Shown here one piece after another: positions 46,624-64,000 of a stretch of 64,000 nucleotides of DNA (within the stretch, counting starts at the first letter, position 1; each line of letters opens with the position of its first letter). Source of the DNA: a virus. The DNA lies in IMG/VR virus record IMGVR_UViG_3300045988_027877, positions 32,001-96,000 of that record; one strand, 5' to 3'. The translations under genes were made by a program, and so were the position numbers. The notes under the pieces are model-generated. The model searched no databases. It saw only the letters and a list, made by a program, of their open reading frames with translations, and was not told the origin of the DNA.

Positions 46624-46627
46624 AAAT

Positions 46628-46653: not shown

Positions 46654-46675
46654 ATCGTTTGAAGTGCCTTGGAGG

Positions 46676-48217: not shown

Positions 48218-48234
48218 TAGAAATAAAATCATAA

Positions 48235-49119
48235 TTAAAGTGGATTCAAAATCTTATTCTCCATTATTTCGATACATACTTCATCCATATCAGATGACTG
48301 TGTATCATCCTGAGTAGATACTTTGTTCTCTTCTTTTATTTTTTCAGTAGAAATATTCATATCTTTAACTATTTGAGTTAAAGGCATGTCTTCAAAGAGA
48401 ACAACTTCATCTAAGAATGCAGAAATATTATCAAATGATTTTACTTTCATATATTCGTTAATGAAGTTCACAACTTCATCTATATTCTTAACTCCCTTAT
48501 CTTCTGCCATATAGCGTACAAATACCGAGTTAGAATTAGCTTCATACTGTTTGAAATAACGAACACGTGAGCATCTATCGAAGAAGTTTTCGTCTATCTT
48601 TTCTGCTCTATTACAAGTCATTAATACAAGTTTCTTTGCTGTTGACTCTACTCCATCTAAGAATCCTAATAGATCCTTAGTTTCCCACCAATAATCGTTC
48701 TTCTCAATCTCATCAAACATGATTACTACAGGAGTAGTAAAGTTTTTGAAGAACGCACTTAGTTTATCAGCAGGATAGTCAGTTGCAACAACAATAATAG
48801 GTAGATTACTTTCTAAGGCAATACGTTTAGAGAGCATTGTTTTGCCTGTACCTTTAGTACCAGCAAGTAATACACCTGTTGTTTGGTTAGAACTTTCAGA
48901 ATTGAAATAAGTAAGCACACGGTTAATAAAGTTATTATCCTCATCTAGCTTATACAGTTTCTTTGGCATATTCAAATCACCATTTTCTACTAAATAAGAT
49001 TTTCCTTCCATACGATTGTACTTCAGATCATATACTTTACCTTTAATAAGTTCATATGCTAATCCTTCTAACTTTGGTTTAACTGTGATCTCATTACCTA
49101 CTTTAATAAATTCTGCCAT
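48235..49119 (-). CDS. AAA+ ATPase
   Basis: GVLLAGTKGTGKTMLSKRIA (Walker A) and VVIMFDEIEK (Walker B). Confidence 0.7.
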   Translation of the reverse strand: MAEFIKVGNEITVKPKLEGLAYELIKGKVYDLKYNRMEGKSYLVENGDLNMPKKLYKLDEDNNFINRVLTYFNSESSNQTTGVLLAGTKGTGKTMLSKRIALESNLPIIVVATDYPADKLSAFFKNFTTPVVIMFDEIEKNDYWWETKDLLGFLDGVESTAKKLVLMTCNRAEKIDENFFDRCSRVRYFKQYEANSNSVFVRYMAEDKGVKNIDEVVNFINEYMKVKSFDNISAFLDEVVLFEDMPLTQIVKDMNISTEKIKEENKVSTQDDTQSSDMDEVCIEIMENKILNPL

Positions 49120-49130
49120 AACTTCTGTTT

Positions 49131-49508
49131 TTATGTTTTTAGTTTGTCGATTAACTCATCGACTTGTTTCTACGTATGTACAACATAGAACGCTGTTTTA
49201 GGTTCATGTGTGTACAAATAATAGTTAAATAACTTTTCACGCAAAGGCCACGCCTCATTAGGGAAGCCTTTACATTCAATCACGAAACCTTTACCAACAA
49301 AGTCTGGTAAATAGGTCATCGGTCTGTATCTTTTGTTTCCAAAAGTAAAAGCTGGAAGAAGTTCGTATCTGTGCTGCTCATAGTCTGCCTAGATCTTTGC
49401 TTCTTTCAGCTTTTTATATGTATAAGTTTCCAGTTTACTTCGGAATTTTATTCCATCGTATTCATTAGGAGTTGCGTTTCTTACTTTTCCAGTCTTCTAT
49501 TTTTTCAT
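49131..49508 (-). CDS. DUF1064-like / Holliday-junction-resolvase-like nuclease with three in-frame TAG codons
   Basis: Minus-strand ATG 49508 to TAA 49131-49133. TAGs at 49497-49499, 49389-49391 and 49170-49172. Translation: MKK(Q)KTGKVRNATPNEYDGIKFRSKLETYTYKKLKEAKI(Q)ADYEQHRYELLPAFTFGNKRYRPMTYLPDFVGKGFVIECKGFPNEAWPLREKLFNYYLYTHEPKTAFYVVHT(Q)KQVDELIDKLKT. The K..N..T..DGI.F.S..E and Y.PDF...IE.KG patterns match the family as I recall it. Confidence 0.55.
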
Positions 49509-49815
49509 AAAAGAATTCTTTAATATAAAATATTATATTATCTATTTTCCACCATAACTTCTTATAAAAAGGAGTTTTACGTAAGTCATCTTCGATGCGC
49601 TTATAATATTCTTCTTCTGAAAAAGTAAGTAATGCTATATACATGTCGTCCCGTTCACTACTACATGTAGTGCACCAGTCGATAATATCTTTCTCTTCCC
49701 ACATATCTTGACGAATCACGACATCTGGGTCCTTTTCATCTTCTTCTAAGAAACGATTATTTTGAAATTCTTCTCTATAATTTTCAAGAAGTTCGATAAG
49801 TTTAGATAACTTCAT
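49465..49815 (-). CDS. Hypothetical protein
   Basis: 116-aa ORF with TAA stop. Confidence 0.5.
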   Translation of the reverse strand: MKLSKLIELLENYREEFQNNRFLEEDEKDPDVVIRQDMWEEKDIIDWCTTCSSERDDMYIALLTFSEEEYYKRIEDDLRKTPFYKKLWWKIDNIIFYIKEFFYEKIEDWKSKKRNS

Positions 49816-49816
49816 G

Positions 49817-50782
49817 CTATAATTGTTTTGTTAACCAGTTCTTTACTTTTTCAAATCCATTAGCTTTAATAGCATCAGATATATCTTTTGCTTTAAATCT
49901 TTTATGGACTAGCATACCTTCTAAGCCTGTTTTTTGGCTCATTTTACGGAGATATTTCACTCCAGCTTCATCTCTATCAAACATTATAATAATACGTTTA
50001 AAGCGCTTCTTTAGGTGCTCTAAGACATCATTCGGAATAAATGTTGATTCAGATGAAGGTGAAATGGCAGGTATTCCCATTTCATATAGACACATGACAT
50101 CCTTCATACTCTTAGTAATTATTAGGATATCACCTTTCTTTGGTAGTTGCTTATAACCTTGAATATCATATTCAGTAAGGTTATTACGCCACTTTGTATA
50201 TTTATCTGCTAAAGGTTTATATATCTTAAAATGATTATAAACCTTATAAGCATACATTGGATTATCTTCTTTATAAATGCTTTTTACTATGCCATTACAT
50301 AGGTAGTACTTTATACTACTTACTCCAAATTTTTTTAGAGTTTCTACCGTAATATTAAACTGCTTCCAGTAATTGATATCAGTTTCAGTGAATTCCTGAC
50401 GTACAACACCAATTACTGTTTCAGTTGACGGTATGTGTTGCTTAGAGCTAACTAATTGCGTATCATTAGTAATCTTAAGTCTACTTACTATATCTTTAAG
50501 TATATCTGAATAGTTAGTAATGCCTGTGTAAAGCTCTATGAACTTTATTACATTACCACATTCTCCAGTGCCATGATCTTTGAAGAGTAATTGCTTAGTC
50601 TTCCTACTATAAAAACAACCAAATGATGGTGTTTTATCTTTCCTTAAAGGAGAGTTATAGATCATGCCTACTTTAAAATTACCTATATACGCAGCATATA
50701 TATCATATTCTGTTACTCTAGCTAATATCCATTCTAGAGTAATACCAAAATTGTCTTTTACTTTACTTGTATCGTAAACCAT
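49817..50782 (-). CDS. DNA primase (Toprim domain)
   Basis: 321-aa ORF. ...ILIITKSMKDVMCLYEMGIPAISPSSE...IIIMFDRDEAGVKYL (E ... DxD Toprim). Ends in TAG 49817-49819, with TAA 4 codons later. Confidence 0.65.
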   Translation of the reverse strand: MVYDTSKVKDNFGITLEWILARVTEYDIYAAYIGNFKVGMIYNSPLRKDKTPSFGCFYSRKTKQLLFKDHGTGECGNVIKFIELYTGITNYSDILKDIVSRLKITNDTQLVSSKQHIPSTETVIGVVRQEFTETDINYWKQFNITVETLKKFGVSSIKYYLCNGIVKSIYKEDNPMYAYKVYNHFKIYKPLADKYTKWRNNLTEYDIQGYKQLPKKGDILIITKSMKDVMCLYEMGIPAISPSSESTFIPNDVLEHLKKRFKRIIIMFDRDEAGVKYLRKMSQKTGLEGMLVHKRFKAKDISDAIKANGFEKVKNWLTKQL

Positions 50783-50798
50783 GATATATAATTATTTG

Positions 50799-50897
50799 TG
50801 AAGGGAGTCAGATTCGAACTGACATCTGTAACTTCTCCTACAAGCTACTGTATTAGACCTAGATAAGGGCGCCCCTATCGTGTTATACTATCCCAAC
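50799..50897 (-). ncRNA. tRNA-like element (99 nt) with canonical T arm, imperfect acceptor and a 28-nt insertion
   Basis: Minus strand: GTTGGGA-TA-GTAT-AACACG-ATAG-[28 nt incl. GGGCGCCC]-AGCTT-GTAGGAG-AAGTT-ACAGAT-GTCAG-TTCGAAT-CTGAC-TCCCTTC-A. Acceptor stem pairs 5 of 7. The 3' end is 16 nt upstream of the primase ATG. Confidence 0.35.
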
Positions 50898-50904
50898 TTA
50901 TCAA

Positions 50905-50942
50905 ACGTGAGTACTTTCGTTAGACTCTACTTGTACTCACGT
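50905..50942. repeat. Perfect 10-bp inverted repeat with 18-nt loop
   Basis: ACGTGAGTAC (50905-50914) pairs with GTACTCACGT (50933-50942). Confidence 0.6.
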
Positions 50943-50984
50943 ATTCCTAGCTTAAGCCCTAGGTGGCAGCTGTTTTAAGTACGA

Positions 50985-51611
50985 TTAGAACGGCAGATCG
51001 TCTGCTGGATCATTACCTACAGACAATTCATCTACTTTAGTCTCTTTATCGGCAATTACTGGTTTAGTAAACATGTCGATAGAGAGTTTCGTAATCATAC
51101 TTTTATTTTCTGGATTTGTCTCTTTATCATAGAACCCTTCTGGAATATCCATAGGTTCAATTACTGCATAAGAAACATATGAAGGTAAGGTTGTGTAACC
51201 TTTCTCATTATAAGTAACCTTCAATTTCAACAAGATATTCTTATTAGCAGCATTTAGCATAGCAATAGCCCAATCGGAGAACTCCTTATAGCTATTACCA
51301 TTGAAGTTAATCAATTCTTTTGGATAGAAACATTTCAGTACACGCATAATACGTGTTACCTGATTAGTAATCTTACTTTGACTTTGTTCTTCAGTCTCTT
51401 CAGGTTTAATGTTTGGTTCCCATTCAGTATGTAACAATTCCTTTCCGTCTTTTTCAAAACGGAGCTCCATAAAGTTTTTACCAGTAGGAGAGGTCGCAGC
51501 TCTCGCACCAGTGAATTTCACATTATCGTGTATACCAGCTTCGAGAAACTTGCTATTCTTGTTACTATCTGTTATTACTATCTTGCTTGCTAATTCTGTA
51601 CTGTAAATCAT
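50985..51611 (-). CDS. ssb: Single-stranded DNA-binding protein
   Basis: C-terminus ...VGNDPADDLPF matches the acidic DDxPF tail of SSBs. I prefer ATG 51611 (MIYSTELASK...) because the longer ORF-track start overlaps the upstream gene. Confidence 0.6.
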   Translation of the reverse strand: MIYSTELASKIVITDSNKNSKFLEAGIHDNVKFTGARAATSPTGKNFMELRFEKDGKELLHTEWEPNIKPEETEEQSQSKITNQVTRIMRVLKCFYPKELINFNGNSYKEFSDWAIAMLNAANKNILLKLKVTYNEKGYTTLPSYVSYAVIEPMDIPEGFYDKETNPENKSMITKLSIDMFTKPVIADKETKVDELSVGNDPADDLPF

Positions 51612-51630
51612 AATTTCTTTGTTTTGTATG

Positions 51631-52374
51631 TTATTCTTCAGGTAAGAAAATACGATCCATATGGAACGTAATATTGTTATCTTCGTCACTTTCAGCAACG
51701 ACTATGTTCTTACCTCTTAGATGTGGTGCTCTTGCTTCTCTTACTATGTTACTACCACCTTCAAATGAAATGATAGTTTCGTTTTTCTTACGATAGACAT
51801 ATCCAATAGCATCTGCTTCACCACAGATAATGTCTCCTAATCTACCAGTAAGATCAAGTGTCATTTCTGACATTTCTTGTCCTTCTACATTTATCTGTTT
51901 ATCTCTCGTATGAGCAATCAATATAAGATGATCACTTAGATCTCTGAACAAGTCGATTACCTTCTTCACAGCCATTCTAAGCCACATATAGCCACTACCA
52001 TTAGGTAGAGTACGAATGTCTGTTCCTTGATAATTTTTTCCTTGATTCGTACTTTTATAAAGCTGTATGGCATAACCCATACATATCTCCTCTAGTCGAG
52101 TTGCATTATCTATAGTAATATACTTATACGGTTTCTTACCCGTACGACTAATCTCTTCTTTAATTGCTGTAACAATATCTCCAAAATCCTTTACAGATCT
52201 TGCTTGAATAACTAAAGCAGATAAAGCCTGGTAACCGTTTTCCAGGTCGATAATCAGATTGTTCTCTAGGGCTGCCATAAGACAGGATTTACCTGCCTTA
52301 GGCTTTCCATAGAAAACGGCAAACTTAGGATTACATACCTTTGCTTCGGTTTTTTCTTTTGGTAATACAATCAT
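51631..52374 (-). CDS. RecA-like ATPase of the AAA_24 / Sak4-like family
   Basis: FAVFYGKPKAGKSCLMAAL (Walker A) and DHLILIAHTRDK (Walker B-like strand). Confidence 0.55.
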   Translation of the reverse strand: MIVLPKEKTEAKVCNPKFAVFYGKPKAGKSCLMAALENNLIIDLENGYQALSALVIQARSVKDFGDIVTAIKEEISRTGKKPYKYITIDNATRLEEICMGYAIQLYKSTNQGKNYQGTDIRTLPNGSGYMWLRMAVKKVIDLFRDLSDHLILIAHTRDKQINVEGQEMSEMTLDLTGRLGDIICGEADAIGYVYRKKNETIISFEGGSNIVREARAPHLRGKNIVVAESDEDNNITFHMDRIFLPEE

Positions 52375-52454
52375 AAAGCTAATTTATTTCTTGTATTCCG
52401 CGTTTCTGGTAAACTCTGACAAATTCTGATAAGTACGGAATCTTAATATCTTAT

Positions 52455-52880
52455 TTAGAACAAACCACTATTCTTCAACTTAATTGTGATGTCGATAATG
52501 GTTTTCTTTGTTTTCGGTTTTAGGTGATTCAGAGAACCCGGTGTAATAGGAATTACATCGTAGCCAATCTGAACGAAATTATCGAAGATACGAATCGGAG
52601 TACCGAACTCGTCTTCAAAGTCATAGTCTTTAGCTGTTACACTAAGAGCGCTCATGAATTTGAAGAACTCATCCTCCAAGTCGCTAATATTAAACGGACA
52701 TTTTGTTCCAGCAGGGCAAGAAATTGTATCTAGATAATAGTAATCAAAGATCTCTTTGTCTTCTTTCTTTTTACCCAGCCAAGGATAAGCGTTCAATATT
52801 TTATCAGCAAGAATGTTCTTGTTGTTAAAAGCACTAGTATTGTTTTTCTTCGGTAATGTAAATGAATATTTTGTAATCAT
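52455..52880 (-). CDS. Hypothetical protein
   Basis: 141-aa ORF with TAA stop. Confidence 0.5.
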   Translation of the reverse strand: MITKYSFTLPKKNNTSAFNNKNILADKILNAYPWLGKKKEDKEIFDYYYLDTISCPAGTKCPFNISDLEDEFFKFMSALSVTAKDYDFEDEFGTPIRIFDNFVQIGYDVIPITPGSLNHLKPKTKKTIIDITIKLKNSGLF

Positions 52881-52905
52881 AATTTTCAGCCTTTAATTGT
52901 TATTA

Positions 52906-53868
52906 CTAAAACGAAATCTTCTTTGCAGGTTCCGTATTCTTTAGCGTTTCAATTAAATTATTGTATTTTAAATCATTGTCAAACTCTAGAATTGCACATT
53001 CTCCAGCATCTCTATTCTTTAAGATGTGGAGATATACCTTATTCTTAACTAGTAGACGATTTGGTCCATACTGCTGTATATTGAGCAATTCTGGTCTGTG
53101 AATACAGATAACGTAATCTGACGCGTGAAATATAGTATCCGCAGAAGAAATATCACTACGCATTGGATAATGCATAGATGGATTGTTAATCCTATCAGGA
53201 GCCTCAATGTTTCGGTTCATCTGTGATAACTGGATTATAGTAGTATTAGGGTACTTTTTAACCCTAATAAACAGTTTCTGTAAATCCGAAATCACTTTCA
53301 GTGCAGATTCTTGACCTTCTACAAGCAAGGTATGGTCTAGGATAATAATAAATTTCTTATCCTTAGCATAATTCTCATAGAAGTAATCAATAGTAGAAGC
53401 TATTTCTCCAACCGTCCCAGGTGTATCTACATAATATATCTGGTATGATTTTATCTGTTGAGATGCTTTCTCAACTTCTGCTAATGTTTCATCTGCAAGA
53501 TCTCCATTAGCGCTGTATAGCTGTGCAGTAGTTTGCCTTAACTTACTACTTAATTTTCTACCTACCTGCCTTGAACTTAACATCTCAAATGAGAAGTTAA
53601 GCACGACGACATCCTGATCTGGATTTAGGTCTATCAAATCAGTTTCTAACGTATTAACAAATGATGATTTACCACTACCTGATATACCTACTATAGTATA
53701 TATCGTATTCGGTTCAATACCACCCATACAATGTGTATTGAACTTATTCCATCTTGTCTTAAGAGATTGAATCTGATGATTCTTTCTCTCTCTGATATAC
53801 TCTACTGCTTCATTAGCAGCAGTAGAGATATGACGGAAAGTAAGTGTATTAGTAGAGTTCTGTTCCAT
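52906..53868 (-). CDS. DnaB-like replicative helicase (RecA-fold C-terminal domain)
   Basis: IYTIVGISGSGKSSFVNTL (Walker A), FIIILDHTLLV (Walker B), IIQLSQMNR. The stop is TAG 52906-52908, immediately followed by TAA TAA. Confidence 0.7.
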   Translation of the reverse strand: MEQNSTNTLTFRHISTAANEAVEYIRERKNHQIQSLKTRWNKFNTHCMGGIEPNTIYTIVGISGSGKSSFVNTLETDLIDLNPDQDVVVLNFSFEMLSSRQVGRKLSSKLRQTTAQLYSANGDLADETLAEVEKASQQIKSYQIYYVDTPGTVGEIASTIDYFYENYAKDKKFIIILDHTLLVEGQESALKVISDLQKLFIRVKKYPNTTIIQLSQMNRNIEAPDRINNPSMHYPMRSDISSADTIFHASDYVICIHRPELLNIQQYGPNRLLVKNKVYLHILKNRDAGECAILEFDNDLKYNNLIETLKNTEPAKKISF

Positions 53869-54415
53869 AACTATTACTAATTACAGGTTCCTCTACTTTC
53901 ATTTGCTCCTCGTAGGTTTCCCACTCGTGTTGAGTGAGCCATTTCCACATAGTTTTCATATAACCTATTTTACCGGTTAGCATTTTATTATCTATCTCGA
54001 AAGATAAACAATTCATTATATGCTGATGCATAGCTCTGCTTTTACCGACTATTCGATTATACTCTTTCCTACATTTGTTTACATTAGCCCTTAAGAAACC
54101 TTTAGTTCCATCAGGTCTTATAACATAAACTGGAAATAGGTCATAGAATTCATCAAACATAGATTTATCTTCTTTTAGAAGTTCCTCTAGTTTTGCTGTT
54201 TTCTTTATGACTGTGGTATCGTCTACAGTGCTGGTAGCGATTAAACCACGAGATTCTAACTCTTGTATCTCTTCTTCATTAACTAGGCTGAGAAGTTTCT
54301 GAATGTCTTGATTGATGTTTTTGAAATCACTCAATACAAGTGTTAGGAATACTAGCTGATTAATAGATAAATTTTCAATCCTGTCAAGGATTGAGGTGTC
54401 TATTTCTAAAATCAT
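53849..54415 (-). CDS. Hypothetical protein (helicase-loader/replication-organiser position)
   Basis: 188-aa ORF overlapping the helicase start by 20 nt. Confidence 0.45.
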   Translation of the reverse strand: MILEIDTSILDRIENLSINQLVFLTLVLSDFKNINQDIQKLLSLVNEEEIQELESRGLIATSTVDDTTVIKKTAKLEELLKEDKSMFDEFYDLFPVYVIRPDGTKGFLRANVNKCRKEYNRIVGKSRAMHQHIMNCLSFEIDNKMLTGKIGYMKTMWKWLTQHEWETYEEQMKVEEPVISNSYGTELY

Positions 54416-54470
54416 AGTCTCATATATTATATGAGCTTACGGTTTCTGAAATTATCTGATAAAGCCTCTG

Positions 54471-56450
54471 TTAATCCCATAGGCTCATTTGTAACGGTTT
54501 CAGTTCTCTGATTATCTTATAGGCTTCCATAATGTAATACCTATAATTAATCTTTCTCTCTTCTATTGGTTTATCATCTAAGTAATTTAATAAAGTAACA
54601 CCAGATGCAGTAAGCATATTCTGATACTGCCTTTCTTTGGCTGTATATCTTTGTGTGCCTACATAAGGTACATCGTATTCAACGATTTCACCCTCTTTAT
54701 AACCTGTTGGTTTCCATTTCCATAAGTAAGCACCATTAGTACTTGCATAGAAACGATTAGTTCTCTGTTGTTCTTTATTATTATACTCAACATGCCATTG
54801 TTTACCAGTCTTTTCAGACATTAGAAAGTCTCTAATATCTTGGCAACCTTTTATAGTTTCCTCTACTGGCACTCCGTTCTTAAAAAAGTTTATTACTGCT
54901 TTCGGTATGATCTTCGGAGTTAGACCTTTTCCTAATTTTACAGTAGTAATAAACATACCTTTCTCTTTTACTGAATCATCTTCAGCAATAGCGAAATAGT
55001 CATTTATAGCATATTGATACATGGCTTTGAAACGTTCTTCCTCAAGTGTTAGCTTAGTAAGTTGTTCCCAATCACGACAAACTTTGTTTACTTTAGAATA
55101 TACATCTTTCTTAAGTAAGACGAATAAACCATCAGTATTTGCCTGGACGATTCGACATCCTAGTTGGGTAAGTTTCTCTGCTAGCATTAGTAATAGTAAC
55201 TGTCCATTTATTCTAATTTGCATTACAGCAAATGGACTATAACAGAAATTATGTTCATTCTGTAAGTTACCTGATAAACCATTAAGAGCTAGCTTTAAGG
55301 TTTCATTCTTAACCTTATTGCCATTGTGTTTTGCTTCGATACGCTCATCTTTAATCTGCTTATATACTTCTAGGAATTCAGGACCTAAGTGTTTAGGATA
55401 GAATTCATATTCTATTAGCATACTTGGATATAGAGATGCAACATCTATATCAATGAGCAACTCGTCTTCTTTCGGAATTATTATTTCTGGCTTATTCACT
55501 GAATGAATGCCACCAACTCCTACAGAATACTGTAATCCTTCAAATACGAATTTGTTTTCATATCCTTTTCTTCCAGGAGATACTATCTGACTTTTCATAT
55601 CAGCTAGTACTTTTTGAAGTACAGGACTATCGTACTTAATAAATGGTAATATAACAGCATTTAACGGTATTACAGACATAGGAGATCTTAAATCTTTAAT
55701 ATCCCACCATGTTTGTCCTGTCTTTTCCAGATACTTCTGGGTTAGGATCTTCATACCAATGTTTACACCATCTTTACTAAGTACTCTTACTCCGTATTCG
55801 TCTTCGATAGCGATCCTAAGATCAATATCTTTTTTGCATCTATTGAGTAACTCTTCAGTAGAATTAACATCATTAATATTATACTCAATCATTGAGTCTA
55901 TTTGACTTTCAGGCAAATCAGCCTGCCAGTCTGTAACAAATTCCTGTACATTTTTGTACTGCATTGTTACTTGAATCTCTTTCAAACCTACTCTTAACTT
56001 ATTACTATATAACATAGTAAGTAAATCAAAAGAATCGAAACAAACCATATATTTCCACTTCTTCCAAGCGTTGATATCATCTTCACTTGAATCAGTGATT
56101 ACTTTACTTAGGTTAAATATAGACCTACATATAGTTCTATAACCTTTGTATTTCATAGTATTATAATAATCTATTATATAGTTTATAATAGCATTATCAT
56201 AATGAAGATTATTATATCCACAGAATAGTTTATCAGTATTAAACTGAATATCTGTAGTATAAAGATCTCCGAATGTATGATTTGTATTTATAGTATGAAA
56301 GAACTCTACGAGCTCATCTAATTGATTGCTTCTGCAAGATATTTCAAATTTATGTAACTCACCTGTTTCTGTATTTTTTACAGTACAATGAAAGACATTG
56401 GGGAATACCTCAATATCATATACATAAACAATCTTATCTCGTATAATCAT
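54471..56450 (-). CDS. Family-B DNA polymerase
   Basis: 659-aa ORF. VYVYDIEVFPN (Exo I), IDVASLYPSMLIEY (motif A, DxxSLYPS), KLALNGLSGN (motif B-like), VQANTDGLFV (motif C). Confidence 0.8.
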   Translation of the reverse strand: MIIRDKIVYVYDIEVFPNVFHCTVKNTETGELHKFEISCRSNQLDELVEFFHTINTNHTFGDLYTTDIQFNTDKLFCGYNNLHYDNAIINYIIDYYNTMKYKGYRTICRSIFNLSKVITDSSEDDINAWKKWKYMVCFDSFDLLTMLYSNKLRVGLKEIQVTMQYKNVQEFVTDWQADLPESQIDSMIEYNINDVNSTEELLNRCKKDIDLRIAIEDEYGVRVLSKDGVNIGMKILTQKYLEKTGQTWWDIKDLRSPMSVIPLNAVILPFIKYDSPVLQKVLADMKSQIVSPGRKGYENKFVFEGLQYSVGVGGIHSVNKPEIIIPKEDELLIDIDVASLYPSMLIEYEFYPKHLGPEFLEVYKQIKDERIEAKHNGNKVKNETLKLALNGLSGNLQNEHNFCYSPFAVMQIRINGQLLLLMLAEKLTQLGCRIVQANTDGLFVLLKKDVYSKVNKVCRDWEQLTKLTLEEERFKAMYQYAINDYFAIAEDDSVKEKGMFITTVKLGKGLTPKIIPKAVINFFKNGVPVEETIKGCQDIRDFLMSEKTGKQWHVEYNNKEQQRTNRFYASTNGAYLWKWKPTGYKEGEIVEYDVPYVGTQRYTAKERQYQNMLTASGVTLLNYLDDKPIEERKINYRYYIMEAYKIIRELKPLQMSLWD

Positions 56451-56470
56451 AGTTAATGGTGTTAAGTTTG

Positions 56471-56529
56471 TTCCCCTGGTCGGACTCGAACCGACATTTA
56501 GGAATTTTAGCCATTTAAACTACAGGGGT
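56471..56529 (-). ncRNA. tRNA-like element (59 nt) lacking an anticodon arm
   Basis: Minus strand: ACCCCTG-TA-GTTT-AAATGGCT-AAAA-TTCCTAAAT-GTCGG-TTCGAGT-CCGAC-CAGGGGA-A. U8, A14, G18G19 and the T-loop are canonical. Only 9 nt occupy the place of the anticodon arm plus variable loop. The 3' end is 20 nt upstream of the polymerase ATG. Confidence 0.45.
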
Positions 56530-56592
56530 TCCAGCGTATTACCGCATGATTACATTTTTTTAATTATGAAAAATTTAATTCGCAGGCAAAGT

Positions 56593-57219
56593 TTAGGCGG
56601 CCTGCTTAGCCTGTTTCATTGAATAGATTTTTGCTGTGCTATTGCGTGCAAAACCTCTATTCTTCTTGTGACGCCCAGTTCCTTTTTCAGGACATCTAGT
56701 GTTTCCTACCTTGTATGTACGAACATACTTGGTCTTAAACTCTACAAGGGAAGCTTTATACTTAGCCTTGTCTTCTTTACTCTGTTTTCTAGCTATTGCT
56801 CTGTCAAGCTTAGCTGTAAGCACAATAGTATGCTTAATAGCATCTATGTCTTTATGCTTTAATCCATGCTTAATTGCTTTAGTAAGCATAGCTTCTTTCG
56901 CTTTGAGTATGAGAGCCTTTCTATGAGCTTTCTTTGCTTTTCTGCGTTCTTTCAGCTCATCACAGTAAAAGTCTTTAGGTTGAAAGTCAATCTTTGCAGA
57001 TCGCTCACGAGCTTCACGAATTCTAGCATTTCTTTCTTCTTTCCATTTCTTAGGAACGATAGGTTTCTTTCCTGCTTTTTCGCGAGCTTCAGCTTCTTCA
57101 GCAGATATTAACATCTTGCATCCTTGCAAACTTCTTCTGTCGGCTTTCCAGATGTTTCTTAACTCAATTCTCTTTTTGCTACGAGCTATTTTATATTGCT
57201 TATTATTCTTGTCCATCAT
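56593..57219 (-). CDS. Highly basic Lys/Arg-rich protein
   Basis: 208-aa ORF dominated by K/R/A/E runs (e.g. KERRKAKKAHRKALILKAKEA). Confidence 0.55.
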   Translation of the reverse strand: MMDKNNKQYKIARSKKRIELRNIWKADRRSLQGCKMLISAEEAEAREKAGKKPIVPKKWKEERNARIREARERSAKIDFQPKDFYCDELKERRKAKKAHRKALILKAKEAMLTKAIKHGLKHKDIDAIKHTIVLTAKLDRAIARKQSKEDKAKYKASLVEFKTKYVRTYKVGNTRCPEKGTGRHKKNRGFARNSTAKIYSMKQAKQAA

Positions 57220-57236
57220 ATCTTGATAATATTAAT

Positions 57237-57244
57237 AGTTAATA
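57237..57244 (-). promoter_or_regulatory. TATTAACT motif 17 nt upstream of ATG 57219
   Basis: Minus strand: gtTATTAACTattaatattatcaagatATG. Confidence 0.3.
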
Positions 57245-57245
57245 A

Positions 57246-57908
57246 CTATGCTGCAAGCAGCTTTGACCTAGTATAATAAGTTATACTATTGTCTCCTTCC
57301 ATATCATAAACGGTAACACCAGTAAAAGAGGAATCCTTTTCAAATTTCTTAGCTTCTTTTACTGCTAATTTGAAAGCGTCTTCTTTAGAAGTAGCTTCAA
57401 AATAGTCGGTCTTGAAATCGTATACTCTGTGATCTTCTATAGTTTGTACTACTGCTGGTACAATCTTTTCAGGTCTCTTTCGTTGAATTACGTATTTAAA
57501 TTTACGTTTATTCACTTCCTCTTCGGAAGGAATTACAACTTCTTTCTTAGCAAATAGATTCTTTTTTACAGTACGAGTGAATTTCTTCTTCTCTTTTCTT
57601 GTATACTTAATAGTAGGATCGAAGCCAGCACTAGCTAAGATCTGTTTAATACGATCTTTCTTAGCTTGTTTAGCTGTTTTATTCTCTTGTCTTGCATTTT
57701 TACCTATATCTGTTGTGTAGCTCTTCTGGCTAACTTTTCCAACGATATTAGTAATACTGACTTTCCCATCTTCTCCTTTAGTAATAAAGGGTGACGGACC
57801 CGGACTTCTAAATACTACTTCTGTCTTCTTTGAACGACGTAGTTTAGAACGGTTAGTTCTGGATAATTTTACTCCAGTTCTCTTATGTTGTACTTTCTGC
57901 TTTTTCAT
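57246..57908 (-). CDS. Second basic Lys/Arg-rich protein
   Basis: 220-aa ORF. Ends in TAG 57246-57248, with the next in-frame stop (TGA) 9 codons later. Confidence 0.55.
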   Translation of the reverse strand: MKKQKVQHKRTGVKLSRTNRSKLRRSKKTEVVFRSPGPSPFITKGEDGKVSITNIVGKVSQKSYTTDIGKNARQENKTAKQAKKDRIKQILASAGFDPTIKYTRKEKKKFTRTVKKNLFAKKEVVIPSEEEVNKRKFKYVIQRKRPEKIVPAVVQTIEDHRVYDFKTDYFEATSKEDAFKLAVKEAKKFEKDSSFTGVTVYDMEGDNSITYYTRSKLLAA

Positions 57909-57924
57909 CTTGATAATGTTTAAT

Positions 57925-57932
57925 AGTTAATA
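57925..57932 (-). promoter_or_regulatory. TATTAACT motif 16 nt upstream of ATG 57908
   Basis: Minus strand: agTATTAACTattaaacattatcaagATG, directly after hairpin 57936-57953. Confidence 0.3.
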
Positions 57933-57935
57933 CTA

Positions 57936-57953
57936 GTGAGCCCGAAGGCTCAC
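57936..57953 (-). terminator. Hairpin with UUCG tetraloop between two early genes
   Basis: Minus strand: GTGAGCC-TTCG-GGCTCAC, 5 nt after the stop of 57959-58468. No T-run. Confidence 0.4.
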
Positions 57954-57958
57954 ATTTA

Positions 57959-58468
57959 TTATGCCGCTAGGCAAATTGGTGCAGACTCTATATCTAGTTC
58001 TGCTTTTTCGTTGAAATCTACTAAATCTTTTGTTAATTTATTGATCTCTAGCTGAAGCTTATTCTTCAACGTACCAATAAAGGCAGAAGTAAGCTCTTCT
58101 GTATTATTGAGCGCTTTCTTACCCTTAGCACGTTTAAGCTTCGGATCAATTGTTTTAATTCGATTTAAATGGTTTAATTGTTCTTGTTTCTCTGAAAGTG
58201 AAAATATCGTAATGTAATTATTATCATTAGACAATTCTGAAAACTTCTTGTATCCCATGTTAATACACTGTAGATACAACTTCATAAGGAAACGTTCTTC
58301 AGCCATCTCTTGGATCTTAGTAAGTAATACTTTAAGATCATAGTTTCGCTTTGCTTCCTTAGAAATAACGTTTTCAATCTGTATTATGTGCCAATACTTA
58401 GTTATATCTTTACTAAGATTGTAAATACGTTCTTTTGCATATTTAGATGTAATTGATTTCATATTCAA
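57959..58468 (-). CDS. Hypothetical protein
   Basis: 169-aa ORF with TAA stop. Confidence 0.5.
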   Translation of the reverse strand: MNMKSITSKYAKERIYNLSKDITKYWHIIQIENVISKEAKRNYDLKVLLTKIQEMAEERFLMKLYLQCINMGYKKFSELSNDNNYITIFSLSEKQEQLNHLNRIKTIDPKLKRAKGKKALNNTEELTSAFIGTLKNKLQLEINKLTKDLVDFNEKAELDIESAPICLAA

Positions 58469-58484
58469 GTGATTTGTTTTTTTA

Positions 58485-58492
58485 AGTTAATA
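58485..58492 (-). promoter_or_regulatory. TATTAACT motif 16 nt upstream of ATG 58468
   Basis: Minus strand: agTATTAACTtaaaaaaacaaatcacttgaatATG. Confidence 0.3.
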
Positions 58493-58519
58493 CTCAACCA
58501 AATTACGTCTACTAGTTAG

Positions 58520-58584
58520 TCATGCATGAGAGGATCAAACTCCCGTCTCTCTAAAGAGCGCTCTAATCACTAAGCTAATGCATG
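58520..58584 (-). ncRNA. tRNA-like element (65 nt) with truncated anticodon arm
   Basis: Minus strand: CATGCAT-TA-GCTT-AGTGATTA-GAGC-G-CTCT-TTAG-AGAG-AC-GGGAG-TTTGATC-CTCTC-ATGCATG-A. It has a perfect 7-bp acceptor stem, a D arm and a T arm. The central arm is only a 4-bp stem with a tetraloop. Confidence 0.4.
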
Positions 58585-58681
58585 GGATTGAAACTGCCCA
58601 GTTCAGCAGTCTCTATTTTGTTGTAGTACCCCATTCAGTACTATAACAAAGAGATTAATTGACAAGTGTCCAGTTCAACAC

Positions 58682-59242
58682 TTATTCGTCAATTATAACT
58701 GTTTTACCAAGATAGCACGGTAATACCCGTCCATCTTCTAGTCTAATACCTATAAAGCCCCGAGGACCTTCAGTCATCTTAACTTTTCGGTTGTGCCCTT
58801 TCTCATCTGCATACTTTTGTAAATACTTTTCATTGATATACTTAGAGTGTAACTCCCCGTTCGGACTACACCGTAAGTTATCAAATAAGATGTCTACTAT
58901 ACAGTCGAGATCATTATTATCTTCAGCTTCCTTAAGTATGGCTTTCATCATGCCATAGAAAGCTTCTTCATTTTTTGCTTCTCCAGAGCCAGACATTATG
59001 CTTGCTGCTTTGATTGCGATATCCGTGATACTCACCGATCCATGAGTATTAAAGAATCGTTGCAACCATTTCGGACCTGAACCATAATATAAGATAACCT
59101 GTCCATTATCTAATATATCTACCTTTTTTGGCTGCTCTTCAAGTCTCCCATTCAATACCTTTACTTTAGCCAAAATAGATGGTTCATATATGATTAGCAT
59201 ACGTAAGAAGTCAACCCGAGAAGGTGACAATCTTCCTATCAT
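58682..59242 (-). CDS. Hypothetical protein
   Basis: 186-aa ORF with TAA stop. Confidence 0.5.
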   Translation of the reverse strand: MIGRLSPSRVDFLRMLIIYEPSILAKVKVLNGRLEEQPKKVDILDNGQVILYYGSGPKWLQRFFNTHGSVSITDIAIKAASIMSGSGEAKNEEAFYGMMKAILKEAEDNNDLDCIVDILFDNLRCSPNGELHSKYINEKYLQKYADEKGHNRKVKMTEGPRGFIGIRLEDGRVLPCYLGKTVIIDE

Positions 59243-59247
59243 AATGT

Positions 59248-59880
59248 TTATTCGCTCTTTTCAATGTGAACGTTTACCTCAAGTTCTGCACTGCTGATAC
59301 CGCATTCGCGCATATAGTTAGTGTAGATCCGTCGGTTGTTTTCTGAATATCCACGAACAGTCTTAGCGAGCATCATACACTTACGAGCCATTTCCTCGTA
59401 CGTATTGATACTACCGTTGTTCGCGATCTCTACGAGCTTGTCAAGGTTCGGCAAGTCTTCAGCAGAGAAGAACATCGGTTTGCTACCTGGCTTACTAAGC
59501 CGGTCAATAGCTTCAGTGACTGTTTCACGAGTTGCTTTACTGAAATCCGGTTCAGCGATTTCGAACATCATCGGTTCTACGCCGGGAATACCAACATTGA
59601 TACCGATCTTCGGCCGTTGATCCAAATCTTTTTCAATAATACTGATACTCATAATGTCAATAGCTTTGACAATATAAGCCTTAATTTCGTTGCGGAAATC
59701 ATTGATTCCGTTCATAGTGTTTTCCTTCCATTTCGGATCAGGACAAACAGCTACGATAGTAAACACTTGCTTACCGAACAAAGGTCCGTAATACTTCTGA
59801 GCGATTTGCCGGTTCTGGGCAAGAATCTGTGCAGCCATAGTTCCAACTACGGGGTTGCCGTTCTGATTAATATTGTCCAT
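59248..59880 (-). CDS. Hypothetical protein (GC-richer than the bulk of the window)
   Basis: 210-aa ORF with TAA stop. Confidence 0.5.
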   Translation of the reverse strand: MDNINQNGNPVVGTMAAQILAQNRQIAQKYYGPLFGKQVFTIVAVCPDPKWKENTMNGINDFRNEIKAYIVKAIDIMSISIIEKDLDQRPKIGINVGIPGVEPMMFEIAEPDFSKATRETVTEAIDRLSKPGSKPMFFSAEDLPNLDKLVEIANNGSINTYEEMARKCMMLAKTVRGYSENNRRIYTNYMRECGISSAELEVNVHIEKSE

Positions 59881-59943
59881 AAAAATGTTTCCCTTCTTGA
59901 TTCCGTACTTGATATACCATACGGATCATTTTAATGTTTTTTA

Positions 59944-59951
59944 AGTTAATA
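59944..59951 (-). promoter_or_regulatory. TATTAACT motif 63 nt upstream of ATG 59880
   Basis: Minus strand: aaTATTAACTtaaaaaacattaaaatg... Confidence 0.25.
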
Positions 59952-60074
59952 TTCGTTTTAATGCTCTCTACCGTTCGATTATTTCTTAGCACTACAGTAA
60001 TGGTAGTGGTGAATTCAATCACATAATCTACTAAGCTTTAATAGAATAAATGTCAATTTATTTGAAAATATCAT

Positions 60075-60115
60075 CTGATAAAATCTCTGATAAAATATGA
60101 CAAAGATTGATAAAT
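60075..60115. repeat. Iteron-like short direct repeats (CTGATAAAAT x2, TTGATAAAT)
   Basis: CTGATAAAAT at 60075-60084 and 60087-60096; TTGATAAAT at 60107-60115. Confidence 0.4.
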
Positions 60116-62102
60116 GTTTATCGTCCCGTGTCGACGGCTAAGATTCAACTCTTTCGATGCTTAGCGCACCTATCACCGTAATCCTATATCGCGATTGGAT
60201 GCAATATAGAAAACTAAGTCAATGGCATCTTTTCAGCCTATTAGTATTTCCGGAAATTACGACAATCTATGCGATTGAAGGTCGTTTTATCTAAACATTA
60301 CTAAAACTCACAAGCCCATTGCTTGAAGCATGGCCCACTTGTACCTCTCGGATTTGTTGTTTATACTGCGCGAATACTGGGATTTCCACCCTTCATCGTT
60401 TCCTTACTGCCTAATTGCTCTTGCTATTAGGTCAAAATGTACTTAGCCCTTTAATCTACCGAGACAGGGTGATTGGCTGTAGGTTATTAACGATTCAGCG
60501 TTCTCTTTACACATTTATTTGCTGTAAATGTTTTAGGAGTGTCTAATGTCAGCGTAACGGTTGGCAGTCTAAGGGTGACTCGTACTCCATGCGGTCTATC
60601 TTACAACTGATAATTTGCCACTTCTGTACTATCATTGAACTTCCTTAATTATTTGTGACCATAGCCTTCCTTCACTATGCGTCGATTAATAATATATTAA
60701 CTATCTCTTAGAACAGATTTAACTAGGCCAGTTCTATTCGGCATTAACTTTCAGATGCAGTAGAGTAACATCATCTGTTCACAATCTTACCTCTCTGGTT
60801 CCAGGGTTCTAAGCTGGAGCAGCTTGGCTCTTACTTGTTAACTTGTTGTTTTTGACTACTACTAATATCTCCTACTCTGGAATGAGTGTGATAATCTAAT
60901 AGTACACCTTTTCATATCTTGAAAGGTATAAGCTCTGCTGTTTTTTAATAGGAGTACCAAGACTCTCCTTGCTTATTATTTTATGCCATATCATACTTGC
61001 TAAAGGTATGTGACAACTAGAATCAGGGTTATAGCGCCCTCAAACCGCCTGAACACTCTGGGTTCAGTCATTCCTCATTCATTTATACTCACACGAACGA
61101 CTAAGCACGTGAGTCACTTTAGACTTGAAAGAATGCTATCAATCTCATATAGCTTCATCCCTCATACGTAAGTTCTTTTGCAGCACACTATTTACGATAA
61201 TGCACAGGATTGGCTCCTGCTCCACGATAATCAATCAGAGTAAAACTACACGTAGTTCTACAATCTGGATCATTGCGTTTCCAGCTTTCATATCCTTACT
61301 TTGCATAAGTATGTACCATAACACGGTTATCCTTCATTAGTATCAGTATTTACTTCCCTTCATATAACGGCTATCTACAAGCTTTTACGAGTAGACGAGA
61401 CAGATTCTCTCCATTAGAACACTAGAAGTTAGCACCCGTATTTTCTCTTTCTGAACGCATACTTGCGCTTTTGTTAAGCGAGTTTGGAGCCCGCTGGAGG
61501 ACGTTCGTCAGTCCTTAATATAAATATATGTTTCGACGTTCCTTTCCAAAGGGATTAGTCCAAGAGCCGTATTGCCCTTGTTTCAGCATCGTGTTTATAC
61601 TCCTTTTTGAATCACATCTTGATAGTGCATACGAGCATTAGGATTTCGTTCCTATTTTGGAGATTATGGATATTGTTACTAAGTAGTTTTATTTGTTTAT
61701 TCTACCAACTATATCTCTCCGATTTGAATTAATTTATGACTAGGGTATCTTCTTGTAGCTCCTAAATCAAGGGTTCTTCACATTTAATATCGCCAGCCGG
61801 TTCTCATATTATTTGCGTGGGCTATTCACCCTCTCCCACTTTCCCTACCTTTTTCACCAGTATGGGCTATTATCCTACCTTTTGAGTATCTCACCGTTGT
61901 TGCGGCTATGGAGCATCTCATAACTACTCCTGACATATTCTCGGATTCTGTATCTTTTCGGGCTATGTGTTAATGGACACAAACTCCCTGACGCGGTAGT
62001 ACTTGAAAACTTCCTACTGTGACCGCCGGAGTGATTCACGCTTTGGTTTTACTCCTCTCGAACCATAGTATAATTATAGTATTTGTATAGCGGCTATTAC
62101 TA

Positions 62103-62528
62103 TTAACTTTTTTCCGCTGAGGATTTATCTTCTCCTGCAATTTCTTGTTCTGGTCTTGCCGGAATAATTTCTCCTGATGGTAGAAATATTGTAGCTACAA
62201 CTTTCTTGCCACGGCATAGATCAACTACGCCATCTTTTATATCACTACTACTGATATAATCGACAGGATCCATTCTTCCTGGATCAAATCCATCCAAACT
62301 AGCACAAATCTTACTTACAGACGAGCGTAAGTACTGTTCTACGAATAAGGTATTACTGATACTAGCTTTCGCTTGTACCTGTATGAGATTAGAGTTCTCT
62401 CCAGCTACTATAAAGTAGTTGGTTTGGTCTATCACTGAATCTAAATTACGCCTTGCATCTTTGCAACTACGAATGATACGTGATAGCCGTACCATCGTAG
62501 TAAGCATAATAAGATTCTTCTTATTCAT
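62103..62528 (-). CDS. Hypothetical protein
   Basis: The ORF track gives 62103-62555. ATG 62528 (MNKKNLIML...) gives an ATGAATAA overlap with the upstream stop, so I prefer it. Confidence 0.45.
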   Translation of the reverse strand: MNKKNLIMLTTMVRLSRIIRSCKDARRNLDSVIDQTNYFIVAGENSNLIQVQAKASISNTLFVEQYLRSSVSKICASLDGFDPGRMDPVDYISSSDIKDGVVDLCRGKKVVATIFLPSGEIIPARPEQEIAGEDKSSAEKS

Positions 62529-62925
62529 TTGAGATATCTTTAGTAAAAGGTGCAAGTGGTTTTACATCCTCTGGCATATTCGCGATACTGCGTACCTTTG
62601 GAAATCCTGTGTTGACTTCTTTTACTCTAGTTCTCCACTTAACAACTGGTTTAAGCTCACCAGTTGTTGTAACGTTCACAATTGCGTCTGCTGTTCCTTT
62701 TACGGATACTTCCTGAGTATTAACGTCATAAGACACAGTAATAGTGTCTACTTTACTCACAGACTGCTTCTCTTCTTTATTAGAGTTCATCATAGACATT
62801 AACTCTAAATATGAAGGAACTACAGGTTGTTGTGCCTGCACGGGTTCGACAGTACTGATTAAATTATAACCAACTAATAAGCTGATTGCAAAGAAACCAA
62901 TTGTCGATAGAATTCTACTATTCAT
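62521..62925 (-). CDS. Small secreted/membrane-anchored protein
   Basis: 134 aa. The N-terminus MNSRILSTIGFFAISLLVGYNLISTVEPVQAQQ looks like a signal peptide or TM anchor. Confidence 0.5.
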   Translation of the reverse strand: MNSRILSTIGFFAISLLVGYNLISTVEPVQAQQPVVPSYLELMSMMNSNKEEKQSVSKVDTITVSYDVNTQEVSVKGTADAIVNVTTTGELKPVVKWRTRVKEVNTGFPKVRSIANMPEDVKPLAPFTKDISNE

Positions 62926-62989
62926 ATTGATTATGAGTTAGTGAACAGTTTCTTAAGGTAGTATACGATATTCCACTTAGACGGCGCTG

Positions 62990-64000
62990 TTAGCTTTTTT
63001 TTTCTTCAGCCGGCTTGTCTTCAGTCTTTGGAGTTTCCGGATATTCTCCAACGAGAGTAGGCAGAGGGCCTTCGAATTCAGCTATCTGATCCATTGGTTG
63101 ACGATATACATTGATGATCTTACCGATTGCGAAACGAATCTGTTCGTTAGTCGGTTCAACCTTGCCTGGATAATAGTTAGCACGTACAAGACTGATAATC
63201 TTGCGAGCAGCAGCACGGGATTCCTTGATTTCCATTAACTGCTCATCTGTAGCATTTTCAGGTACAGGGCGAGTATAATCAGCCATCAATTTGTCAACAT
63301 ATTCCAATCCAACACTACCAACTACAGATTGAATAGCCTTATCCTCTGTAGGTTTCGGCTTTTCGGTTTTGATAACATTGCCGTTTGCGTCAATCTTATC
63401 TTCCAAGCTATAGCGATAGTTTTCCTGAATCAGTACTTTCAGCAGACTGACAATGTCTTCTTCACTCCAGTTAGGCAATTTGCCATGCAGAATACTGTGA
63501 GCAGATACTGGAGAACCTTGCTGTTTCGTATAAAGATATACGGAACGTCCAAGACCCTTCATCAATCCTGCAATTGGAATGAGATGGAAGATTTCGTCAA
63601 TCCATTCGTTAAGTGGTTTAGCATCGAGTGCAAGCTTAGCATCAGCAGAACTTGCGTTGTTCATACACAACCCACGATACCATTCTAAGGTTTTGTCAAT
63701 ACAAACCGTAATATCACGGTTCTGGTGCATCAAATAGTCCAAAGCTGCACAAATCTTTTCGTGATCTGTACCAACTTTGCCATAGTCGAGATCAGGTACA
63801 GTTTGTACCGGAGCTTTCTTATCATTCAATTCTTCGGGAACAACAGTATCCGGTGAAGTGAAATCAATAGCAAGCTGTTTTTCACCTTGCGGGCCTACAA
63901 TTGCTTTTGGTGCAGCAAGAGTAATACCCAGCATTTCTGCTACTTCGTTCAAAGGCATCAGCTGATCTTCAGGTATCTTCGCAACAATCTGACCACCTGA
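62990..64000 (-). CDS. Hypothetical protein, 5' end possibly beyond window edge; GC-richer
   Basis: 322-aa ORF from ATG 63958. The frame stays open upstream to position 64000 (…SGGQIVAKIPEDQL-M). TAA stop at 62990-62992. Confidence 0.5.
   Translation of the reverse strand, partial: SGGQIVAKIPEDQLMPLNEVAEMLGITLAAPKAIVGPQGEKQLAIDFTSPDTVVPEELNDKKAPVQTVPDLDYGKVGTDHEKICAALDYLMHQNRDITVCIDKTLEWYRGLCMNNASSADAKLALDAKPLNEWIDEIFHLIPIAGLMKGLGRSVYLYTKQQGSPVSAHSILHGKLPNWSEEDIVSLLKVLIQENYRYSLEDKIDANGNVIKTEKPKPTEDKAIQSVVGSVGLEYVDKLMADYTRPVPENATDEQLMEIKESRAAARKIISLVRANYYPGKVEPTNEQIRFAIGKIINVYRQPMDQIAEFEGPLPTLVGEYPETPKTEDKPAEEKKS

Follow-up and report, generated by a model that had tools for sequence, protein, structure and literature searches.

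What does a tRNA that has lost its anticodon arm do directly in front of a phage DNA polymerase gene? The question is raised by TLS1, a 59-nt tRNA-like element at 56471–56529 on the minus strand of a 64,000-nt stretch of viral DNA (positions 32,001 to 96,000 of IMG/VR record IMGVR_UViG_3300045988_027877; the whole stretch is called the window here, and coordinates refer to it unless another sequence is named). The source phage is crAss-like (Crassvirales; Suoliviridae; Loutivirinae; Buchavirus copri), and the region is 95.5% identical to that of the crAss-like phage cr52_1 and ~83% identical to that of three other Buchavirus species. The original prediction, made from the bare sequence, had read the element as tRNA punctuation, at which host RNase P and RNase Z would cut an early transcript, with a decayed tRNA gene as the conservative alternative. 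We find that TLS1 is with high confidence a selected, non-decoding tRNA derivative; the best explanation is that a former tRNA gene was turned into an element of which only the shape matters, one of three in the leftward replication module. We give a probability of about one half to the reading that these elements are cis-acting RNase P/RNase Z processing signals, so that the comparative data support the punctuation proposal in part.

Read on the minus strand, TLS1 is the RNA ACCCCUG-UA-GUUU-AAAUGGCUA-AAAU-UCCUAAAU-GUCGG-UUCGAGU-CCGAC-CAGGGGA-A. It consists of an acceptor stem with six of seven base pairs, a D arm with G18G19 and a stem of 4 bp (one of them G-U), an 8-nt linker, a canonical T arm (5 bp, loop UUCGAGU) and a discriminator A without CCA. 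The features listed in the original prediction are indeed all present: the unpaired acceptor position is A1/A72, U8, A14 and G18G19 stand in register on the minus-strand sequence, the T arm is GUCGG-UUCGAGU-CCGAC, and the 9 nt said to replace the anticodon arm and variable loop correspond to a linker of 8–9 nt. The claimed distance of 20 nt to the polymerase start is exact (56451–56470, followed by the ATG at 56450). A search with the Rfam tRNA model, which had been proposed as a check, matches 56471–56529 exactly (RF00005, 35.4 bits against a gathering score of 29, E = 0.001 for the whole window and all families). In this alignment, 18 model positions of the anticodon arm shrink to 4 nt, and ARAGORN calls no tRNA over the whole window, in keeping with the earlier claim that the element cannot decode. 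Measured against a canonical tRNA, TLS1 passes the gathering score and has the acceptor, D and T arm features; the anticodon arm of 5 bp with a 7-nt loop is missing. Because this arm is replaced and ARAGORN finds no tRNA, we do not file TLS1 as a tRNA gene. No other family was listed at the site in the Rfam search with E values up to 10.

With −18.2 kcal/mol (z = −2.0), the minimum-free-energy fold combines the acceptor helix with two hairpins, that of the T arm and one on the D side, the latter in a register other than that of the canonical D stem. The covariance model R1, which we built from polymerase-site elements alone, scores TLS1 with 54.7 bits. On the minus strand of the window R1 gives only two further matches and nothing else below E = 1: TLS2 at 58520–58584 and TLS3 at 50799–50897, the two additional aberrant tRNA-like elements that had been announced together with TLS1. 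From the E values and above all from the conservation of the element at the same site in relatives, we conclude that TLS1 is beyond chance.

This conservation was analyzed in 80 IMG/VR contigs with a polymerase 75–98% identical to that of the window, of which 78 include the upstream region. A T arm followed by a 7-nt acceptor 3′ strand precedes the polymerase in 78 of 78 contigs, and in 77 of them 18–21 nt separate the end of the element from the polymerase ATG (28 nt in contig L073). The matching acceptor 5′ strand is present in most; contig L080 is without the 5′ half of the element. A covariance model recovers 77 of the 78 elements at E ≤ 0.1, and the remaining one (L082) is divergent and can be parsed by hand. 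What differs is the middle of the molecule. The anticodon domain is absent in a first form (a) of 58–59 nt, which is found in the window and in contig L028 and, as a second sub-variant with the acceptor strands GUCUGUG...CACAGAC, in four named phages and many contigs. A form (b) of 71–72 nt has instead a stem CGCUA...UAGUG that ends in GUAA, in GAAA or in a short loop. Longer versions have a 12-nt loop together with an enlarged D loop (c, 80–84 nt), a 56-nt insert with UUCG-capped hairpins (d, 117–119 nt) or, in single contigs, inserts of ~65 to 130 nt (e); a last form (f), seen in five contigs, is a plausible tRNA-Met(CAU). Altogether 16 IMG/VR contigs and five named Buchavirus phages from four species share the arm-less form (cr60_1 belongs to both sets). 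Instead of a normal tRNA in the relatives and random decay in the window, the finding that would have spoken against the original prediction, the truncated form is thus itself conserved; a plausible tRNA occupies the site in few relatives, namely the tRNA-Met(CAU) of 5/78 contigs and an annotated tRNA-Val in Culoivirus (Boorivirinae).

For the 78 polymerase-site regions ARAGORN reports no tRNA in 42 cases, "His(atg)" in 28, Met(cat) in five and "???" in three; one additional "none" in the output is believed to be an end-of-file record. By these calls a credible anticodon is restricted to the five Met(cat) contigs. We reject the 28 "tRNA-His(atg)" calls, as the presumed anticodon stem forms 6 bp around three loop nucleotides and is homologous to the stem CGCUA...UAGUG, on which sister types have a GUAA or GAAA cap. 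The GenBank "tRNA-His" of cr53_1 (L002 5907–5978; NC_055889.1 82122–82193) is very likely a misannotated, non-decoding form (b). Outside the Loutivirinae, cr114_1 of the Uncouvirinae has an 80-nt element of type (c) at the polymerase site and cr10_1 a weak one. In cr10_1 (L090 5280–5347) and in contig L186 (IMGVR_UViG_3300007566_000008) we also see tRNA-like elements that carry no annotation and have odd bodies or a shortened anticodon loop, and the phenomenon therefore reaches beyond the Loutivirinae.

Is it the shape that is under selection? We aligned 33 distinct polymerase-site sequences and counted 15 pairs, which belong to the acceptor and T helices and, with 3 bp, to the D helix. In these helices 96.9% of the cells are paired, and 13 of the 15 pairs show changes on both sides, compared with 74% pairing in column shuffles and at most 49% with slid partners; the 5′ acceptor strands were placed by maximizing pairing and the sequences are related, so that these values have to be read with both points in mind. 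RNAalifold, applied unsupervised to the arm-less subset alone, recovered the same helices with six compensated pairs. Between the two arm-less sub-variants, five pairs of the acceptor and T stems are exchanged by compensatory double substitution, with D arm and linker nearly unchanged. The columns that vary hardly or not at all are those of the nucleotides behind the universal tertiary contacts of tRNA, U8, G18, G53, U54, U55, C56, A58 and C61. Since G-U pairs occur on the sense strand, we place the structure in the RNA and not in the DNA. Covarying acceptor, D and T helices next to a free anticodon domain are the pattern that a function of minihelix plus elbow predicts.

In the arm-less group, nucleotide diversity (pi) falls from 0.23 in the upstream spacer, where indels come on top, to 0.099 in the TLS1 element, which stems mostly from compensated differences, and to 0.039 in the 20-nt leader; the third codon positions of the polymerase gene give 0.10. 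The leader, the A/U-rich stretch CAAACUUAACACCAUUAACU from the discriminator to the polymerase ATG (56451–56470, minus strand), is thus the least variable non-coding stretch. The acceptor sequence and the discriminator, for which A, U, C and G are all found, vary between element types, which argues against a role via charging by a specific aminoacyl-tRNA synthetase. We accordingly rejected roles based on aminoacylation, for which G3:U70 and G-1:C73 are missing as well. A tRNA intron was also rejected as an explanation of the 56-nt and ~130-nt inserts, because group I introns are longer than this and because nothing that could be spliced is left in the arm-less form.

Some of the variation has a different source. 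Contig L008 has a polymerase 98% identical to that of the window and an identical 20-nt leader, yet it carries at 2862–2980 a 119-nt element with the 56-nt UUCG-hairpin insert. Furthermore, primase-site elements from other lineages (contigs L165–L174) again show the D arm of the arm-less form. The elements seem to be swapped as cassettes among phages and among sites.

The two sister elements show the same tendencies at other genes. TLS2 (65 nt, minus strand, 58520–58584; R1 23.6 bits, E ~5 × 10−3) lies upstream of a gene for a 169-aa protein, and its anticodon arm is cut to a stem of 3–4 bp with a 4-nt loop. The forms at this site in Buchavirus measure 64–67 nt and have the same short stem and a 4-nt loop, GUAA being among the loops. 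In 14 distinct short forms from this genus 98.4% of the cells are paired and 10 of 18 pairs are compensated. Outside Buchavirus the site holds a normal 74-nt tRNA-Arg(UCU), from which we derive TLS2 because other genera have that tRNA at the same site; in addition, the tertiary pair 19:56 is A:U both in the tRNA-Arg and in the short forms. The gene downstream is listed as an open reading frame (ORF) at 57959–58468 on the minus strand; its likely start is an ATG at 58462 that is conserved, and relatives keep both the leader and this start (ATGAAATCAATTAC). The protein has no assigned function and gave no match in Pfam, PHROG or PDB.

TLS3 (99 nt, minus strand, 50799–50897; R1 26.7 bits, E ~1 × 10−3) ends 16 nt before the ATG of a DNA primase gene (321 aa, 49817–50782, minus strand; PHROG 12622, E = 3.2 × 10−38; annotated "DNA primase" in cr52_1). 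Its computed fold comprises an acceptor stem with 5 of 7 bp, an enlarged D region, a 7-bp stem with a 7-nt loop and the canonical T arm GUCAG-UUCGAAU-CUGAC. Between the copies of the window and of cr52_1 we count two compensatory double changes. In almost all 80 related contigs a T arm and acceptor lie ~11–20 nt before the primase ATG, with bodies from ~136 nt down to 42 nt, as given by a scripted parse that mis-set the boundaries in a few contigs. The 42-nt minimum, found in 28 contigs, consists of the acceptor, AAUGGUUAAU and the T arm, without a D stem. ARAGORN accepted none of the primase-site elements of related contigs. Seven nucleotides upstream of TLS3 we read from the sequence a 10-bp hairpin, ACGUGAGUAC...GUACUCACGU, followed by UUUG (50905–50942, minus strand), which is either terminator-like or protective of a 3′ end. 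In most relatives a homologous hairpin with UUUU stands 3–8 nt before TLS3.

The elements of the window thus precede their start codons by 16 nt (primase), 20 nt (polymerase) and ~57 nt (169-aa gene). At all three sites and in relatives the trailer begins C-A/U-A, that is CAA or CUA and not CCA; the polymerase leader starts with C-A-A.

How could such an element act? The 12-bp acceptor/T helix with its elbow is conserved, and the anticodon domain, the acceptor sequence and the discriminator vary freely. Such a profile fits enzymes that read shape, namely RNase P, RNase Z and the CCA-adding enzyme, for all of which acceptor/T minihelices are sufficient substrates. A profile of shape and not identity therefore favors a cis-acting processing signal. 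Within the polycistronic message the element would fold into the coaxial acceptor/T-arm helix and the elbow of D loop and T loop. Host RNase P would then cleave at its 5′ border and host RNase Z directly after the discriminator, because CAA or CUA and not CCA follows there; a 3′ CCA blocks RNase Z. The freed polymerase message would begin with the fixed, unstructured, A/U-rich leader of ~20 nt. Ribosomes of the Bacteroidota, which we take to be the host phylum, initiate without a Shine–Dalgarno sequence, and a short unstructured leader would suit them. The upstream message would be left ending near a hairpin, at 50905–50942 in the case of TLS3 and at 56582–56605 in the case of TLS1. The latter, a conserved 6-bp hairpin of the predicted fold ~50 nt upstream of TLS1 on the same strand, carries in its loop the stop codon that ends the 208-aa ORF upstream, and its stem reads GCAGGC...GCCUGC in the window versus GCUAGC...GCUAGC in the aligned relatives, which amounts to two compensatory changes.

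Transcription through the element, both cleavages and their benefit are what this model would require. That the upstream genes are co-transcribed is inferred from the spacing, from the common strand and because no promoter or terminator could be recognized. A generic sigma-70 promoter and terminator scan of 46600–64000 gave promoter-like counts at the level of shuffled sequence and no terminator-like site beside TLS1 on its strand. The Bacteroides promoter consensus TTTG-N17-23-TAnnTTTG has no match in the window, TAnnTTTG alone occurring at chance level, and the gap between the hairpin 50905–50942 and TLS3 is too small to hold a promoter. Pfam, PHROG and PDB sequence searches for a phage-borne RNase P-like or tRNA-processing protein among the neighbors (169, 186, 208, 210 and 220 aa) came back empty.

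Several points weigh against this processing model. The acceptor stem of TLS1 has an A/A mismatch at position 1/72 and that of TLS3 two U-U mismatches, and position +1 of the elements is often U and not the G preferred by RNase P. Only three of the ~20 genes of the module are preceded by an element, so that any punctuation is partial, and in cr6_1 of the Bearivirinae no element is detectable at the polymerase site. Part of the covariation is whole-cassette exchange and not stepwise compensation, as contig L008 illustrates. Transcription could also begin at or just before the element, and a polymerase message with the 5′-monophosphate left by RNase Z might lose stability and not gain it. Finally, in the literature on Suoliviridae we did not find transcript-end or cleavage data for the cultured phages.

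Which other explanations have to be weighed? The plainest is that TLS1 is a functionless tRNA pseudogene, decaying neutrally after the deletion of its anticodon arm. Here the original alternative of a decayed tRNA gene holds for the origin, because decodable tRNAs occupy the homologous sites in some relatives, and the 1:72 mismatch of the window copy and its rejection by ARAGORN would fit as well. It fails for the present status. The arm-less form is common to four Buchavirus species and 16 IMG/VR contigs, the compensatory double substitutions between its two sub-variants all lie in stems, 96.9% of the cells are paired in the 33 aligned sequences, the tertiary nucleotides are invariant, and the spacer alongside has many indels and over twice the variability. 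These conserved, pairing-respecting changes disfavor neutral decay, which we regard as very unlikely. A feature of the DNA, which could be an attachment site taken from a host tRNA gene or else a replication signal in the form of a hairpin or cruciform, would agree with the position in the replication module, and phage attachment sites often carry fragments of tRNA genes. Against this stand both tRNA halves, where a 3′ fragment alone would be expected, the G-U pairs, which are A-C mismatches on the opposite strand, the tie to the start codons of three genes and the lack of repeats in the one stretch tested (59880–62110). We find it scarcely credible.

The remaining alternatives accept a selected RNA. 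The element could act in cis without being cut, as a rigid insulator or 5′ stabilizer that keeps the leader unpaired, or as a translational operator for a phage or host protein. The fixed distance to the ATG, the strong conservation of the leader and the stable, independent fold of TLS1 speak for this, and the DNA polymerase of phage T4 represses its own translation via a hairpin just upstream of its start codon. For an insulator, any stable hairpin would do, yet the tRNA geometry of 7 + 5 bp and the elbow nucleotides G18, G53, U54, U55, C56 and A58 are conserved; an operator for a single protein fits poorly with similar elements before three unrelated genes at 16, 20 and ~57 nt. We therefore consider an uncut element doubtful. 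Somewhat less probable again is that the released element is itself the product, a stable, possibly CCA-tailed and non-decoding tRNA mimic that acts in trans, for example by titrating host factors or defense nucleases. The window copy has retained the whole tertiary core of a tRNA, beyond a minihelix, the replacements of the anticodon arm capped by GUAA, GAAA and UUCG suggest selection for a stable RNA, and the phage group carries several other structured RNAs. A mimic would be expected to present a specific surface, yet acceptor sequence, discriminator and middle domain differ freely among close relatives and TLS3 shrinks to 42 nt without a D stem; the strict linkage to gene starts is also left unexplained. 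One may speculate that both ideas combine: the Suoliviridae would run a mitochondrion-like tRNA punctuation whose excised mini-tRNAs (down to 42 nt), once CCA-tailed, would also act in trans on host tRNA-binding enzymes or tRNA-directed defenses, and so couple processing to counter-defense or to the sensing of the host's tRNA-processing capacity. This is a long shot.

Precedents for the processing reading come from organelles and eukaryotic nuclei. The closest analogue are the t-elements of plant mitochondria, tRNA-like folds that do not decode, have GGTTCRANYCC as their conserved T arm and adjoin mRNA ends (PMC1920247). They are taken to direct the RNase P and RNase Z cuts that make mRNA 5′ and 3′ ends, their borders match mapped ends, and canonical tRNAs serve other genes of the same mitochondrial genome likewise (PMC1920247). 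The phage elements share the non-decoding fold, the conserved T arm and the position at a gene border; TLS1 lies on the strand of the flanking genes, 20 nt before an ATG, and no CCA is encoded after the discriminator at any of the three sites. They differ in that t-elements belong to organelle genomes and have a distorted cloverleaf, whereas the bacteriophage elements have lost the anticodon arm, and in that t-element cleavage has been mapped experimentally while the phage elements are known here as sequences.

In animal mitochondria, as reportedly described by Ojala, Montoya and Attardi in 1981, RNase P and RNase Z excise the tRNAs between cistrons and thereby release the mRNAs (tRNA punctuation). 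There the punctuating units are working tRNAs, whereas in the phage most are non-decoding and stand at three junctions only. Wilusz et al. are said to have reported in 2008 that the tRNA-like signals of mascRNA/MALAT1 and MEN-beta are cut by RNase P and RNase Z and CCA-tailed. Like the phage elements, mascRNA (Rfam RF01684) has a tRNA-like fold that offers no usable anticodon and lies within a longer transcript, and there the function is processing; mascRNA is eukaryotic and nuclear and retains an anticodon-like arm, and TLS1 has no Rfam match to its family. In the literature on crAss-like phages and on phage tRNA-like elements with RNase P or RNase Z we did not find such elements described.

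TLS1 resembles ordinary phage tRNAs in its gathering score, its canonical D, T and acceptor arms and its ancestry, and differs from them by the 8-nt linker and the rejection by ARAGORN. The tRNA-like domain of tmRNA likewise combines an acceptor stem and a T arm without an anticodon arm, but it has a large mRNA-like and pseudoknot domain, G3:U70 and no D stem, whereas TLS1 has an 8-nt linker, a C-G pair at 3:70 and a D stem. We rejected this identity, as G3:U70, an mRNA-like domain and a match to a tmRNA family are all missing at the site. The bacterial Y RNA YrlA is reported to join a tRNA-like module to a Ro60-binding helix (PMC4201824). TLS1 has no extra helix, and only tRNA was listed in the Rfam search, which covers Y RNAs if they are in Rfam; this identity was rejected too. 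The arm-less mitochondrial tRNAs of nematodes and mites are, like the phage elements of 42–59 nt, drastically shortened, but there it is the D arm, the T arm or both that are lost; the anticodon arm is always retained and they still decode, so that the phage elements have lost the opposite part.

The genome around TLS1 fits a non-decoding role. The window is divided into a plus-strand part (1–46623) and a minus-strand part (46676–64000). The late genes on the plus strand are TAG-recoded: the frames 2–6280, 21322–25476, 28898–42298 and 42295–46623 contain 19–32 in-frame TAGs apiece, one frame of 4466 codons having 32. The called genes of the minus-strand replication module contain no in-frame TAG and are not recoded. 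In the closest complete genome, cr52_1, the single real tRNA is a CUA suppressor with an encoded CCA, 14 nt ahead of the terminase gene and beyond the window; the phage therefore has no decoding need for TLS1. The gene downstream of TLS1 encodes a DNA polymerase of 659 aa (54471–56450, minus strand; PHROG 1252, E = 6.8 × 10−148). Its orthologues in cr52_1 and relatives are annotated as "DNA polymerase" in GenBank, and the protein of the window gave no Pfam and no PDB sequence match. The polymerase gene is split in cr53_1 (L002 3074–5886), with a gene for an HNH endonuclease between the parts, and in cr118_1 (L092 2416–4703). These splits are consistent with introns or inteins, both already reported for crAss-like phages.

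Other structured or unusual stretches were seen along the way. Between ~59900 and 62100 the window has 2.2 kb without an ORF under code 11, with TAG as sense or with TGA as sense. This stretch is unannotated in cr52_1 and has a G+C content of 37–40% versus ~33% in the adjoining genes. A repeat search of 59880–62110 found none; a weak tRNA-like match lies at 60344–60465 on the minus strand (13.6 bits, E = 1.2). The stretch could be a large non-coding RNA or an origin of replication. At 11817–14354 on the plus strand there is a diversity-generating retroelement. Its ORF 13308–14354 (four in-frame TAG) is the reverse transcriptase with the motifs YPDRIVHH and RYADDIVILG, and ORF 11817–13070 ends in a Gly/Ala-rich tail of the kind found in variable regions of targets of such retroelements. 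The Rfam families RT-17 (40.8 bits, gathering score 40.4) and RT-18 match 13247–13335 between the two ORFs. Beyond the window, cr52_1 has a permuted-tmRNA-like gene at 81171–81551 (L088 21172–21552), called by ARAGORN as tmRNA with the tag GNTSYVTDYTRLVA and scored by Rfam tmRNA_permuted with 41.3 bits, under the gathering score of 47, and a strong RAGATH-20 RNA at ~81877–81979 (L088 21878–21980; 119.6 bits).

In summary, upstream of the polymerase gene the fold and the position of a tRNA-derived element are fixed, its three helices and tertiary-contact nucleotides are under selection, and its anticodon domain is free to change. Among the known examples, tRNA genes or shapes are established as processing signals in organelles and in some nuclear transcripts of eukaryotes. 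The comparisons suggest that a bacteriophage family has tRNA-like processing elements too, in which the anticodon domain may have vanished altogether and, before the primase gene, the D stem too. For annotation, the elements are either missed by ARAGORN or mis-called, as with the "tRNA-His" of cr53_1, which affects tRNA counts and arguments about codon usage. The crAss-like phages are among the most abundant viruses of the human gut. If the processing reading is true, a DNA phage would reuse tRNA genes as RNA-processing signals, natural minimal substrates of 42–59 nt would be at hand for the RNase P and RNase Z of Bacteroidales, and there would be a testable handle on gene expression in hosts whose translation is not led by Shine–Dalgarno sequences.

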